A stretch of 64,000 nucleotides of DNA. It comes from a virus. Of this stretch, positions 24,552 to 28,735 are shown piece after piece. The position numbers were made by a program, and so were the translations under genes. The notes under the pieces were generated by a model. The model was given only the letters and a program-made list of their open reading frames with translations. It did not search any database and was not told the origin of the DNA. Location of the stretch: positions 19,462 to 83,461 of the IMG/VR virus record IMGVR_UViG_3300036780_000171; one strand, 5' to 3'. Every line of letters starts with the position of its first letter. The first letter of the stretch is position 1.

Positions 24552-25151
24552 TTACACTCGATGACGCTTGAGCCGTAGCAAATTGCCAAGATATCCAACT
24601 ATACCAACCAGGGCTGCTGCGGGCAGCAAAAAATTACCGGCACCAGTATTTGGTAGTGTTGTAGGCTGTTCTACAGCAACTGGCTTCGTGGGCTTGACTG
24701 TTGGCGTTGTCACATTGGTAGTAGTTGTCACTGGTGGCACAAAGGGTGGCGGCACACTAGGCGGGGTGCTTGGTGTTGTTGCTGGCGGAGTAGTAGGCAG
24801 TGGCGTAGTGATTGGTGGCGGCACTGCTGGCGGAGTAGTACTTTTGTGGCACGGTTTCTTGTGCGGCTTTGGTTTGACATACAAAACCACTACAGGCTTT
24901 TTGTGGCACGGTTTCTTTGGTGCAGGTTTGACATATACTATGGACTTGGGCTTTGGTGGGCATGGTTTAGTTTGTTTTGGCTTGGTATAAACCGGAGCCG
25001 GTTTATGACATGGCTTCTTATGGGAACCGGCCTGATATGTATTCGTGTGCTTATCGTTCTGGCTATATTGCTGGTTGCCGTGTGCCGAAGCAGTGGCCGG
25101 TGTCACCAGAACAGCTATTGCCACCAGCACGCCGAGTAATAGCTTTTTCAT
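24552..25151 (-). CDS. Secreted surface protein with LPXTG-like sorting signal
   Basis: Signal peptide MKKLLLG..ASA; KKPCHK repeats; P/T stalk; LPNTG + TM + basic tail. Confidence 0.8.
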   Translation of the reverse strand: MKKLLLGVLVAIAVLVTPATASAHGNQQYSQNDKHTNTYQAGSHKKPCHKPAPVYTKPKQTKPCPPKPKSIVYVKPAPKKPCHKKPVVVLYVKPKPHKKPCHKSTTPPAVPPPITTPLPTTPPATTPSTPPSVPPPFVPPVTTTTNVTTPTVKPTKPVAVEQPTTLPNTGAGNFLLPAAALVGIVGYLGNLLRLKRHRV

Positions 25152-25227
25152 ATTTACAACCCTACAGCAAATATTCAGACTGTGCAAGTTTTTATTTTTT
25201 ACACAGTGGTGTATAAAATGTATTCAC

Positions 25228-25578
25228 TTATTTAGATTTACTACATGTATCAGAACACCAGCGAGTCCGATGTCCTGTTAACGTTTTACCACATCGTTCA
25301 CACGTTAAACGTGAGCCGTTTTTAAGTTTTTGCTCAATCTTTTTATCACGGACAAGACCAATGCTTTGTTCAAAGGTTTTATCCCGTGCCTCACGTACTA
25401 ATTCATGCCTAATTTGCCGATAATGGGTTCTGTAGCGTAAGTCATAGGCTAACATTTTTAATTCAAGCTTGAGTGAAGCCCTGAGATAATCCGCTTTTGT
25501 TGGTGTTTGTTGTTCTGGCTCATCTGCTACTAGTTCGCCGTCGATATATATTTTTAGTGGTTGTGTTTGTGTGACCAT
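25228..25578 (-). CDS. Hypothetical protein with C-terminal zinc finger
   Basis: CERCG..WCSDTC; ATG 6 nt after TATAAT. Confidence 0.65.
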   Translation of the reverse strand: MVTQTQPLKIYIDGELVADEPEQQTPTKADYLRASLKLELKMLAYDLRYRTHYRQIRHELVREARDKTFEQSIGLVRDKKIEQKLKNGSRLTCERCGKTLTGHRTRWCSDTCSKSK

Positions 25579-25629
25579 AACTATATTATACACGAGCTTG
25601 ATAAAATGTCAAGTCCATTATCCAAAATT

Positions 25630-25665
25630 AAGAAAACACCACCTGAATATTTGTGGTGTTTTCTT
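25630..25665 (-). terminator. Intrinsic terminator
   Basis: AAGAAAACACCAC/GTGGTGTTTTCTT inverted repeat. Confidence 0.75.
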
Positions 25666-25677
25666 GACTAGACTAGC

Positions 25678-26250
25678 CTACATCTTGAGTGCTAACTTGC
25701 TAGTTCCACTACTTAATGTGACAGTATTGGCTGATGAGTTGGCAGTATAGCCAACCGTGTTCAGCTTACTAAAGCTATTTGCATTACTGGCATTGTAGTA
25801 ACCAATTCTATTATCCCATTTGGCATTTTCAGAAATGGAACCATAAGCTGCCGGCCAGCCCGCTGTTGAGACACCTGACGTGGTTGTAAGCACGGCTGGT
25901 ACAACGGAACCACTCATTACTGTGGGTGCCTCATTTACTTTTTTTTCAGCTTTTTTCTTGACTTCGGAAACTTCCTCGCGAGTATCTTCGCGCAGGTTTT
26001 GCTTCTCGCTTTCGGACAACTGCACATCGTCTAGCGAGTTCACAAAGTCGATAATGCGCTTGGCATCTTCTGCTGACACGCCGACTGCTTCGAGTAACAT
26101 ATTGGTTTGCTCTTTGAGCAGCAATACTTCGTGGGCTTTTTCTTTTAGGGTTGATAGAACGTTAGCGAGTGTCTTCGCCCTGACAGCACGGTCTATGCGC
26201 TTAATATCGTCAAGAATATCAGGTTTCTTGTCTTCTTCATCTTTTGCCAT
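25678..26250 (-). CDS. Hypothetical coiled-coil protein
   Basis: 190-aa ORF with GGAG RBS. Confidence 0.7.
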   Translation of the reverse strand: MAKDEEDKKPDILDDIKRIDRAVRAKTLANVLSTLKEKAHEVLLLKEQTNMLLEAVGVSAEDAKRIIDFVNSLDDVQLSESEKQNLREDTREEVSEVKKKAEKKVNEAPTVMSGSVVPAVLTTTSGVSTAGWPAAYGSISENAKWDNRIGYYNASNANSFSKLNTVGYTANSSANTVTLSSGTSKLALKM

Positions 26251-26392
26251 TTTCTAACTCCATATATTAAAATAGGCCTGCAAATGTCTTACCCTCTCGG
26301 ATTGATTTTTCGCAAGCGATTTAAAATGACTGGTTGATATTAAGGAACTACTTATATCGTAGCATACACGACTATGATTTACAATAAACTCA

Positions 26393-26580
26393 TTGAACCT
26401 TAGCGGCCAGCATTATATAATTGGGTTAAGTAGGTTACTATCCTAAGCAAATAGAAACCTACTTGAGTTATAAACTCGTAATGGCTGGGCTTCACAGTTT
26501 GGTATTCCTATGCTATAATTTTGGTAGCTTAGGATAGTAACAAATCTAATAGAAGCCCGCCGGAAAGGAGGGCTTTTTAC
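26393..26580 (+). promoter_or_regulatory. Tandem promoters, antisense-type sRNA and terminator-like leader upstream of the replication initiator
   Basis: TTGAAC-17-TATAAT (26393-421); TTCACA-17-TATAAT (26491-519); 15-nt complementarity 26434-48/26527-41; AAGCCC/GGGCTTTTT hairpin. Confidence 0.65.
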
Positions 26581-27360
26581 ATGGCAAATTCCCGTATCGT
26601 AAGTACCAACTTTTGGCGCGATACATATATAACAAATCTCGACCCGACAGAAAAACTGCTATTTTTATATTTTTTGACAAACCCGCAAACAAATCTAGCT
26701 GGCATTTATGAAATCGACTTGCGCCTCGTGGCATTTGATACCGGCATAGATGAGAGCATGGTCAAAAAAATACTAGAGCGTTTTTGCGATGACAGAAAGA
26801 TATATTATGAAAATGGTTGGCTAATTCTTTGCAATTTTATTAAATATCAAAAACTTAACGCGAATATGAAAAAGGGCGTTAGAAATATTATTGACTCGCT
26901 ACCTGATTGGCTGCAAAAGAAAATTACACTCACTAATAACAGGGGTATTATGCAACTAAAATTAAAACCCTTACCGAATGGTTCCAAACCCTTACCGAAT
27001 GGTTCCGATAATATAATTAAATTAAATATAAATAAAATTAAATCTAATAAAAATAGAAAGTCGGTGGAAAAACCACCGGATATTATTGGTTCACTATTCT
27101 ACCAAGCTATAAAAGCTTTGGGACTACCGGTTACAAACCACAATACTATTAAAGCGAAAATTGAGGCATTAAAGCGTGAAATACCCGAAATCAAAGCAAT
27201 CAGCTACCTTGAATTCATTCGTGATAAGTACTTATCACTTGAGATTGATTTTAAACCGCAAATTAATACTGCCCTCGATATTTATACGAAACGTGTACAA
27301 ATTGAGAATGCAATTCGACAAGCCAGTAAAGAACAAAGTAATCAAGGGGTACGTTTATGA
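26581..27360 (+). CDS. Phage replication initiator (replisome organizer-like, N-terminal wHTH)
   Basis: SRIVSTNFWRD..EKLLFLYFLTN..NLAGIYEI..AFDTG; internal tandem repeats and AT-rich tract. Confidence 0.8.
   Translation: MANSRIVSTNFWRDTYITNLDPTEKLLFLYFLTNPQTNLAGIYEIDLRLVAFDTGIDESMVKKILERFCDDRKIYYENGWLILCNFIKYQKLNANMKKGVRNIIDSLPDWLQKKITLTNNRGIMQLKLKPLPNGSKPLPNGSDNIIKLNINKIKSNKNRKSVEKPPDIIGSLFYQAIKALGLPVTNHNTIKAKIEALKREIPEIKAISYLEFIRDKYLSLEIDFKPQINTALDIYTKRVQIENAIRQASKEQSNQGVRL
26965..27006 (+). repeat. Two perfect 21-bp direct repeats (iteron-like; putative origin)
   Basis: AAACCCTTACCGAATGGTTCC x2, followed by AT-rich 27009-27058. Confidence 0.75.
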
Positions 27361-27764
27361 GTTATCGCGTAACATTTAGAGACAGAACTACAGCCTTGCT
27401 CGAAAATAGCAAAGGCGAACAGCTAAAGAAATACCTACTTTCCAATAGACCGCCAGTAAACATTGAGATTAATGGCGAGCTATACAGAGCCAGTGAAATT
27501 ATTAGCGTTAAGAAAGCGGTAGCCACTGAAGATAATATTCCAGTAGCCGATTGGAATACTTTACGACTACCGACTGGCAAAAAATGTCACGGCCAATATT
27601 CTGTCCAGAATGAAATAAACAAAATTGCAAAAAATACATATGGTAAGGTCCATTGGTCTAAACTTATTCATGATAAAAAGTGGCGCGAAAGTATATATCA
27701 GGAGTTACTAAAAACCCCAGATAAATGGTGTGACTATAAAAAAGGTACATGTTATTGTGAATAA
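27357..27764 (+). CDS. Hypothetical protein following the initiator
   Basis: 4-bp overlap. Confidence 0.65.
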   Translation: MSYRVTFRDRTTALLENSKGEQLKKYLLSNRPPVNIEINGELYRASEIISVKKAVATEDNIPVADWNTLRLPTGKKCHGQYSVQNEINKIAKNTYGKVHWSKLIHDKKWRESIYQELLKTPDKWCDYKKGTCYCE

Positions 27765-27897
27765 CAATAGTTGGAAAAACTTTAGCTTACCAGATAGAGA
27801 TAATATCCGTAAGGCATATAAATCTGTGTGGCCTTTAGTTATATCAGGTCAATCGGTTGACCCATATTCAATTTGGCCACATGACTGAACCAGCTAT

Positions 27898-28227
27898 ATG
27901 TCACCTATCGAAAAAAATGTTTGGGAAGATATCCGTTATTACGGGCTTCCATTTTATCCACAGATACCATGTGGCAGGTATTTTATAGATTTTGCCGACC
28001 CTTATAGACAAATCGCTATAGAGGTTGACAGCAAAGAATATCATCAGGATAAACAAAAAGACCTGGAAAGAGAAAACTATTTACGTAAAAATGGCTTTAT
28101 AACTATCTTAAGGTTTAGAGGAAAAGATACATTCGCAAACTTAGAAGATTATTCTGGCAATAAAAAAGAAATCGCTGAATATACTATCGCTATGCTATGG
28201 GCTGACCATTACAAGCAATCGCGCTAG
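27898..28227 (+). CDS. DUF559/Vsr-like PD-(D/E)XK endonuclease
   Basis: PQIPCGRYFIDFA..IAIEVDSKEYH..D..RE..L..G..ILRF. Confidence 0.8.
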   Translation: MSPIEKNVWEDIRYYGLPFYPQIPCGRYFIDFADPYRQIAIEVDSKEYHQDKQKDLERENYLRKNGFITILRFRGKDTFANLEDYSGNKKEIAEYTIAMLWADHYKQSR

Positions 28228-28519: not shown

Positions 28520-28735
28520 ATGGCAGGAACAAGAGCCGGTGGCAAAGCTGCGGCAGCTACCAACAAGGCTAAATATGGCGCAGGCTTCTACGCGAAGATT
28601 GGTGCTTTGGGCGGAAAGAAAGGAACAACCGGCGGCTTTTATGCAAACCGTGAGCTGGCAAGGATAGCTGGCGCAAAGGGTGGCACTATTAGCCGACGAA
28701 CAAAAACTTTAAGCACGACAGGTGCAAGGGCATAA
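28520..28735 (+). CDS. KGG-repeat stress-induced protein (YciG/GsiB-like)
   Basis: MAGTRAGG..FYAKIGALGG..NRELARIAGAKGG. Confidence 0.85.
   Translation: MAGTRAGGKAAAATNKAKYGAGFYAKIGALGGKKGTTGGFYANRELARIAGAKGGTISRRTKTLSTTGARA

Follow-up and report, generated by a model that had tools for sequence, protein, structure and literature searches.

The leader of a replication-initiator gene in this soil-metagenome virus is most economically read as a two-state RNA leader in which pairing between two complementary segments, arms A and A', would act as the sensor, and in which nested transcripts from two promoters, P1 and P2, would gate both transcription and translation of the initiator operon, a reading to which we assign a probability of about 0.5. 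Its parts differ in strength: that the leader works at the RNA level, as a terminator/antiterminator with a functional A:A' pairing, we hold to be probable, while for a component that acts in trans we put the chances a little short of even. All coordinates refer to the window, i.e., the whole stretch of 64,000 nucleotides that was analysed, which spans positions 19462-83461 of an IMG/VR virus record of 83.5 kb that has direct terminal repeats (Table 1).

Table 1. Genes, promoters and RNA elements at the initiator leader, in window coordinates.
Feature	Position	Strand	Description
190-aa gene	25678-26250	-	unassigned; left flank of the gap
Promoter P1	26393-26421	+	TTGAAC-17-TATAAT; sigma-70 match; predicted start near 26428
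Hairpin H1 of the P1 RNA	26428-26464	+	9 bp, bulge, 4 bp; 9-nt loop CCUAAGCAA
Arm A	26434-26448	+	7 loop nt plus 8 nt of the H1 5' arm; complementary to A'
Small hairpin H2	26465-26477	+	GAGUU-AUA-AACUC; predicted; not conserved in the relatives inspected
Anti-B	26483-26493	+	GGC-U-GGGCUUC; 5' strand of the predicted antiterminator; overlaps the P2 -35; P1 transcripts only
Promoter P2	26491-26519	+	TTCACA-17-TGcTATAAT, extended -10; predicted start 26526/26527
Arm A'	26527-26541	+	first nucleotides of the P2 transcript; complementary to A
Linker	26542-26550	+	AAAUCUAAU; A/U-rich; sequence similar among relatives
Intrinsic terminator T	26551-26578	+	hairpin 26551-77, -14.9 kcal/mol; T run 26574-78
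Terminator arms	B = 26551-58 + 26560-61; B' = 26567-68 + 26570-77	+	
Regulated gene, 259 aa	26581-27360	+	DnaD-like helicase loader / replisome organizer

The cassette lies within a 330-bp gap separating two divergent gene blocks. The 259-aa product of the regulated gene matches PHROG 1701 'DnaD-like helicase loader' (2e-19) and PHROG 6251 'replisome organizer' (1.6e-18), and its homologues in cultured phages, among them Tenacibaculum phage JQ and the Bacillus phages Gamma, Cherry and Wbeta, are annotated as replisome organizers. In Tenacibaculum phage JQ, the cultured homologue that we inspected, the leader is absent and the gene overlaps its upstream neighbour; a search of a phage collection with the DNA returned no match. 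Downstream, the initiator gene is followed by small unknown genes, endonucleases, an Erf-like annealing protein and an exonuclease, which together with the initiator form an early replication and recombination operon. A 71-aa product encoded in this operon (28520-28735) is 67-71% identical to proteins encoded behind the L263 and L165 leaders, in phages with differing initiator genes; judging from this one gene, early modules may be exchanged in mosaic fashion. The divergent 190-aa gene was considered as the source of a protein partner and rejected, as it is not conserved in the relatives.

Both promoters that the initial annotation had placed in the gap are present and rank among the best sigma-70 matches of the 64-kb window, P2 agreeing with the consensus at 11 of 12 positions. 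Among the hairpins it drew behind P1, the first is confirmed (H1, 13 bp, -11.6 kcal/mol, z -4.2) and the second (GAGTT/AACTC) is predicted by folding; the third (GGCTG/CAGTT) is weak as drawn and does not appear in the predicted fold. Its observation that the first hairpin is complementary to the 5' end of the P2 leader holds without a mismatch: arm A is a perfect 15-nt complement of arm A', both on the plus strand and 78 nt apart. An exact 15-nt inverted repeat at this spacing arose in none of 5000 shuffles and one of at least 11 nt in 0.28%, the A:A' duplex reaches -25.4 kcal/mol compared with -12.6 +/- 2.6 in shuffles, and the 15-nt complementarity is not due to chance. Further copies of arm A beyond chance expectation were not found in the 83-kb genome, and no extra trans targets with them.

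Relatives of the cassette were sought in IMG/VR, in the JGI metagenomes and among GTDB genomes by scans guided by proteins or by patterns, covering several hundred loci; the pattern scans of IMG/VR mostly gave chance matches, with L263, L279 and L367 as the only new true members. Together with the window, L003 and L006, these make six complete leaders, all from metagenomic, uncultured phages, and a further leader, L005, is cut at -99 and counted only where seven leaders are given. The complete leaders share one order of elements, namely P1, H1, a G-rich segment at the internal -35, the extended -10 promoter, A', the linker and the terminator, after which the gene starts in the context ATG-GCN. 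In each of the five complete relatives, a promoter occupies the relative position that P1 has in the window. The extended -10 (TGnTA) of P2 is kept in seven of seven leaders, whereas among the six P1 promoters a clear TGn extension is seen in L006 only. A hairpin equivalent to H1 is present in all six leaders, in each of which arm A sits in the apical loop of the local hairpin, and A' begins 5-7 nt past the P2 -10, i.e., at the predicted start, again in six of six.

The sequences of A and A' themselves are unrelated between the six phages. Their cores of 15, 12, 14, 9, 9 and 8 nt extend with G.U pairs or bulges to helices of 11-19 bp, continuing through G.U pairs in L006, L279 and L367, at centre-to-centre spacings of 77-93 bp, a variation of 16 bp. 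When each leader was compared with 1000 dinucleotide shuffles, at least 999 of which were beaten, the A:A' duplexes reached -18 to -26.5 kcal/mol against -9 to -14 in the shuffled leaders (p <= 0.001 for each of the six). When a covariance model was derived from the window alone, it recovered L263 (E 2.6e-6), L279 (0.0028) and L367 (0.011) over their full length. Aligning the leaders with MAFFT left the arms out of register, and the per-locus duplex tests and a model-fitted alignment were used instead. In the latter, the paired arms change together in the five other phages, as the initial annotation had suggested looking for, with 12 of the 15 pairs of the A:A' helix changing on both sides; 94.5% of the A:A' cells are paired, compared with 34-52% when the partner is slid, in an alignment that is fitted to the structure and thereby favours it.

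The genes behind the cassette are not of one kind. They comprise the family of the window (PHROG 1701/6251), a PHROG 678 'replication initiation O-like' / 2514 protein in L279 and a 74-aa initiator form in L263 and L367; by sequence, the cassette precedes three initiator gene types. In the window, L003 and L006 it occupies a divergent intergenic region, and its terminator therefore does not serve an upstream gene.

This terminator, which had been noted earlier as a terminator-like hairpin before the initiator ATG, is present and is predicted to be an intrinsic one. Its hairpin encloses the Shine-Dalgarno sequence AAGGAGG (26566-72), and its U-tract ends 3 nt before the ATG; a hairpin with a U-tract 1-3 nt before the ATG is found in seven of seven leaders, and the terminator stems contain G.U pairs. 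The match of GGGCTTC (26487-93) to GAAGCCC (26552-58), likewise pointed out before, is real and extends with one bulge to 10 bp (26483-93 / 26552-61), with a predicted energy for anti-B:B of -19.6 kcal/mol compared with -10.5 +/- 2.0 in shuffled sequence, none of 1000 shuffles being as good. When the window RNA is cut before the 3' terminator arm, anti-B pairs with 26552-61 at a probability of 0.95-1.0, and in P1 leaders cut before B', the G-rich segment at the P2 -35 is the partner of arm B in all six (probability 0.6-1.0), the G-run of anti-B having the same length as the C-run of B (3/3, 4/4 or 5/5). Covariation support for anti-B:B is thin because the anti-B sequence varies little, and the pairing is individually significant in the window only (p < 0.001), not in L003 (0.24) or L006 (0.10). 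We read this second match as a cis antiterminator; with its 5' strand encoded ahead of the P2 start, it is predicted to occur in P1 transcripts only. Pairing at GAAGCCC would open the terminator, so that the Shine-Dalgarno sequence would be exposed, not masked.

The arrangement is that of attenuators in general, with an intrinsic terminator between promoter and gene and an upstream strand whose pairing excludes it. Leader-peptide attenuation was considered and rejected, as no ORF with a Shine-Dalgarno sequence is conserved across the six leaders; a ligand-type core is not conserved either, and the A:A' pairing is the only conserved candidate sensor.

As a whole, the P1 leader of the window folds better than 200 of 200 shuffles (z -4.6). 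Nested folding gives an ON state, with H1, the antiterminator and a free Shine-Dalgarno sequence, and an OFF state, with the long-range helix A:A', the terminator and a buried Shine-Dalgarno sequence; that A:A' and the antiterminator exclude each other follows from the nesting, and as crossing helices they could coexist in a pseudoknot. The two states are near-isoenergetic in the window (-51.4 versus -50.9 kcal/mol). A second fold, up to the ATG, favours the closed state in all six leaders, by 1.4 kcal/mol in the window and by 2.9-9 kcal/mol in the others, and with arm A blocked, as it would be by a trans RNA, the antiterminator gains 1.3-7.6 kcal/mol in this balance, again in six of six. The 3' arm of H1 was also considered as a general anti-antiterminator and rejected, since it pairs with anti-B in the window fold only and this is unconserved in the relatives; in that one fold, a freed 3' arm pairing with anti-B would link trans binding to termination. 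The RNA predicted to run from P2 to the terminator is about 52 nt long in the window and 49-69 nt across the leaders. Within it, A' is largely unpaired (0.56-0.90) and is followed by the linker, the terminator hairpin and the U-tail, so that the predicted RNA has the classical anatomy of a base-pairing sRNA.

In the mechanism that we propose, the P1 RNA would start with H1, arm A being shown in the loop, and anti-B could pair with the 5' arm of the terminator; because the antiterminator may form during synthesis, before the 3' terminator arm exists, P1 transcripts could read through. As P2 lies inside the leader, its transcripts would be without H1 and anti-B and would begin directly at arm A', and most of them would be expected to end as the RNA of about 52 nt or to keep the Shine-Dalgarno sequence buried. 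The conservation of the internal promoter, with A' at its start and A in a loop, suggests a bimolecular interaction of loop and 5' end, in which the short P2 RNA would be the likely trans partner of the H1 loop on P1 leaders. A discrete small RNA is more likely to be the P2-to-terminator transcript than a P1 product and, given its sRNA anatomy, the roles of regulator and target may be the reverse of those proposed earlier. Such a trans RNA would have to compete with an intramolecular partner, because every P1 transcript carries A' in cis. Occupation of A in trans would remove the helix that stabilises the OFF state and shift the leader toward ON; the computed consequence of trans pairing is activation because the closed state is de-stabilised, and the opposite sign is also possible. 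The output would depend on RNA concentration, which would couple initiator synthesis to the time after infection or to template copy number.

P1 and P2 may furthermore respond differently to factors that block -35 recognition. Because P2 has an extended -10 in seven of seven leaders and P1 clearly so in one of six, a phage-encoded anti-sigma factor like AsiA could reverse the P1:P2 ratio during infection. We regard as tentative, with chances clearly below even, the fullest form of the proposal, an undescribed riboregulator in which the ratio and concentration of two co-linear RNAs, in place of a protein, a ligand or an antisense RNA from the other strand, set initiator read-through and translation and an AsiA-type anti-sigma factor flips P1:P2; if true, this flip would make the device an early-to-middle replication timer.

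The same elements could work in cis only, H1, A:A', the antiterminator and the terminator being alternative folds of the P1 mRNA and nothing acting in trans, with P2 merely a second promoter and its short RNA a by-product; a leader of this kind might be a folding timer that closes the Shine-Dalgarno sequence, an RNase III site or a stabilising 5' structure. Both arms are indeed contained in every P1 transcript, where intramolecular pairing is kinetically favoured, and A:A' together with the terminator is the minimum-energy fold of the full leader in five of six cases and lies no more than 0.5 kcal/mol from the optimum in the window. More distant loci, in addition, have one promoter and a long-range helix near the terminator. 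Yet we consider a leader confined to cis action unlikely, for it leaves unexplained why A' begins at the P2 start in all six leaders and why a strong extended -10 promoter that would make only terminated RNA with a sequestered Shine-Dalgarno sequence is kept in all seven, and it gives no reason for the display of A in a hairpin loop.

We judge decidedly unlikely the direction favoured by the initial annotation, in which a P1-derived RNA (H1 plus GGGCTTC) would act as a same-strand antisense RNA of the C4/CI kind on P2 leaders, pairing with them at the 5' end and in the 5' terminator arm and so setting initiator expression. Both complementarities are present and conserved in position, and C4 and CI, too, are made as part of the transcript that holds their target, from which processing releases them. 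However, a free P1 sRNA is not apparent, because no terminator or evident processing site was found between the P1 hairpins and P2, and on P1 transcripts A faces its own A' in cis. Pairing at GAAGCCC, moreover, would open the terminator and the Shine-Dalgarno sequence, activating rather than repressing, and GGGCTTC lies outside any stable loop. The C4 family of Rfam (RF01695) gave no match in a cmscan of 25000-28000 at E <= 10, in which nothing rose above noise, and a search of 20 related loci gave no meaningful match and no C4. What stands of the earlier proposal is a same-strand RNA device in the initiator leader, conserved and with co-varying arms; its placement in the C4 family is not supported, nor is the direction of action from a P1 sRNA. 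Likewise, the first of the two target sites proposed, that of the H1 loop, is supported, whereas the second appears to be the cis antiterminator described above. A role in immunity, which had also been raised, is unlikely because neither a tyrosine integrase nor an HTH_3 repressor was found in the 83-kb genome.

Very improbable, finally, is an element that acts at the DNA level, with the arms as inverted sites for a phage protein, e.g., the initiator repressing its own promoters, or as a structural element of single-stranded origin DNA. In its favour, each core matches its partner as a perfect Watson-Crick inverted repeat, located from +6 to +20 relative to P1 and from +1 to +15 relative to P2, the sequence of the arms changes from phage to phage as protein specificities would, and plasmid Rep proteins repress their own genes at inverted repeats. 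Against it, the spacing of the arms varies without helical phasing, the arms themselves are not palindromic, one arm always lies in a hairpin loop and the other abuts the terminator/antiterminator, which would be meaningless for DNA binding, the helices extend via G.U pairs that are tolerated in plus-strand RNA and are mismatches in DNA, the cassette occurs with unrelated initiator families, and a better origin candidate, without similarity to the arms, lies inside the gene.

This origin candidate comprises a perfect 21-bp tandem duplication inside the initiator gene (26965-27006), which encodes KPLPNGS twice in an inter-domain linker, and AT-rich short repeats just after it (27010-27055; region 26954-27060); as a repeat with an AT-rich tract, the segment 26965-27055 is a candidate replication origin within the replisome-organizer gene. 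An origin inside the initiator gene is known from lambda O/ori and from SPP1 gene 38/oriL. A motif AACAAATCTA that recurs in the gene was set aside, since repeated Thr-Asn-Leu codons explain its recurrence and it is not enriched.

In the gap itself, no promoter-like site was found on the minus strand within 26250-26580; by eye, a leftward promoter (TTGTAA-17-TGcTACGAT, 26358-26386, minus strand) can be made out back to back with P1, which is absent from the list of the simple scan and with which the gap would be a divergent early promoter region. Further to the left, a perfect 12/12 sigma-70 consensus (TTGACA-16-TATAAT) lies at 25612-25585 on the minus strand, immediately preceded by a perfect hairpin of 13 bp (25630-42 / 25653-65) located behind the 190-aa gene, and the segment 25585-25665 looks like a terminator-then-promoter junction. 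In L006, a TTGACG-17-TATAAT promoter is followed almost immediately by a G+C-rich hairpin and T7 (1215-1265, about -285 to -235 from the ATG), which would make up either a very small transcription unit or, ahead of P1, a terminator working in both directions.

In a broader survey of the family, long-range inverted repeats of at least 11 nt are enriched upstream of DnaD-like genes, and terminator-like hairpins occur in 25 of 198 DnaD-like loci. The layouts of these distant loci are heterogeneous, and we therefore do not count them as members or claim homology. Five of them (L039, L084, L104, L113 and L156) have single-promoter leaders in the order A, B, A', B'-UUUU; there, the first 11-15 nt of the RNA form a perfect complement to a segment inside or between the terminator arms, and this 5' pairing and the terminator look mutually exclusive. 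These leaders may be a simpler cousin of the window cassette. Three others (L172, L143 and L093) carry upstream of the DnaD-like gene structured units of about 70-95 nt with a closing stem of 12-15 bp and then a U-tract, in L172 with a consensus promoter 10 nt upstream, and these are possible stand-alone small RNA genes adjoining the initiator gene.

To our knowledge, little has been established about the control of replication initiators in virulent and in uncultured phages, and RNA-based replication controls are known mainly from plasmids, with countertranscripts from the opposite strand, and from P4. The cassette is compact and, found before at least three initiator gene types, appears portable. 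Because the arm sequences are re-programmed in every phage, its pairing specificity seems to evolve freely while the architecture stays fixed. If the proposed mechanism holds, the cassette would offer synthetic biology a simple, orthogonal and sequence-programmable switch, and its ordinary sigma-70 promoters and intrinsic terminator make direct testing possible in E. coli or in vitro.

Our literature searches turned up no account of an element like this. By analogy, the device would function like P4 CI, IsrK and pT181-type attenuation, yet it belongs to none of these, nor to C4, because it has no Rfam match, no opposite-strand promoter and a different architecture: its promoter P2 is internal, its arms form a single pair, and the Shine-Dalgarno sequence lies in the terminator. 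In the immunity system of satellite phage P4, the CI RNA (seqB) acts together with the seqA and seqC segments of the alpha (replication) operon leader; this leader has a single promoter, and processing of its transcript sets CI free. Regulator and complementary target share one strand of one leader there (PMC4825925). The window shares with P4 CI the same-strand leader, premature termination before replication genes and RNA-RNA pairing as the presumed sensor. It differs in that an internal promoter, not processing of a single transcript, creates the second RNA species, in its one arm pair in place of seqA/seqB/seqC, in the position of its Shine-Dalgarno-containing terminator just before the ATG and, unlike the immunity setting of P4, in showing no lysogeny genes.

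The Salmonella prophage Gifsy-1 makes IsrK as two nested same-strand RNAs, a short one that is terminated and a longer one that arises by read-through. A long-range helix keeps the long form translationally silent until the short form pairs in trans with one strand of this helix, opens it and gives the active fold (PMC4825925). This activation parallels the computed effect of blocking arm A in the window and its relatives. The isoforms of IsrK, however, come from one promoter and differ in their 3' ends, whereas those of the window would differ in their 5' ends and share the terminator; the target of IsrK is the orf45-anrP antiterminator cascade and that of the window a replication initiator, and the two have no sequence or Rfam relation.

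In the rep leaders of pT181, pIP501 and pAMbeta1, an antiterminator (preemptor) and a terminator exclude each other just ahead of the rep ribosome-binding site, and kissing with a hairpin loop decides between them, which makes the leader a dosage sensor for the initiator, read by a countertranscript from the opposite strand. The antiterminator/terminator leader, the RNA-RNA pairing at a loop and the replication-initiator gene are shared with the window, in which, unlike in the pT181 type, the complementary RNA would come from the same strand, by way of an inverted repeat and an internal promoter.

C4 is released from an operon leader by RNase P processing as an RNA of about 77 nt, and it resembles the window cassette as a same-strand antisense RNA whose hairpin loop recognises a downstream site of its own operon. 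C4 has two loops (a, b) for two downstream sites (a', b'), of which b' covers the ribosome-binding site of the target, and the window one loop, that of H1, for one site; C4 masks the icd ribosome-binding site, whereas the loop target in the window ends about 25 nt upstream of the Shine-Dalgarno sequence and its second match would unmask this sequence; and the biology of C4 is antirepressor immunity, that of the window a replication initiator. In the pairing of a hairpin loop with the 5' end of another RNA, the interaction proposed for H1 resembles IS10 RNA-OUT/RNA-IN. If true, the device would add a new design to the same-strand riboregulators C4, CI and IsrK, in which an internal promoter makes the trans RNA.
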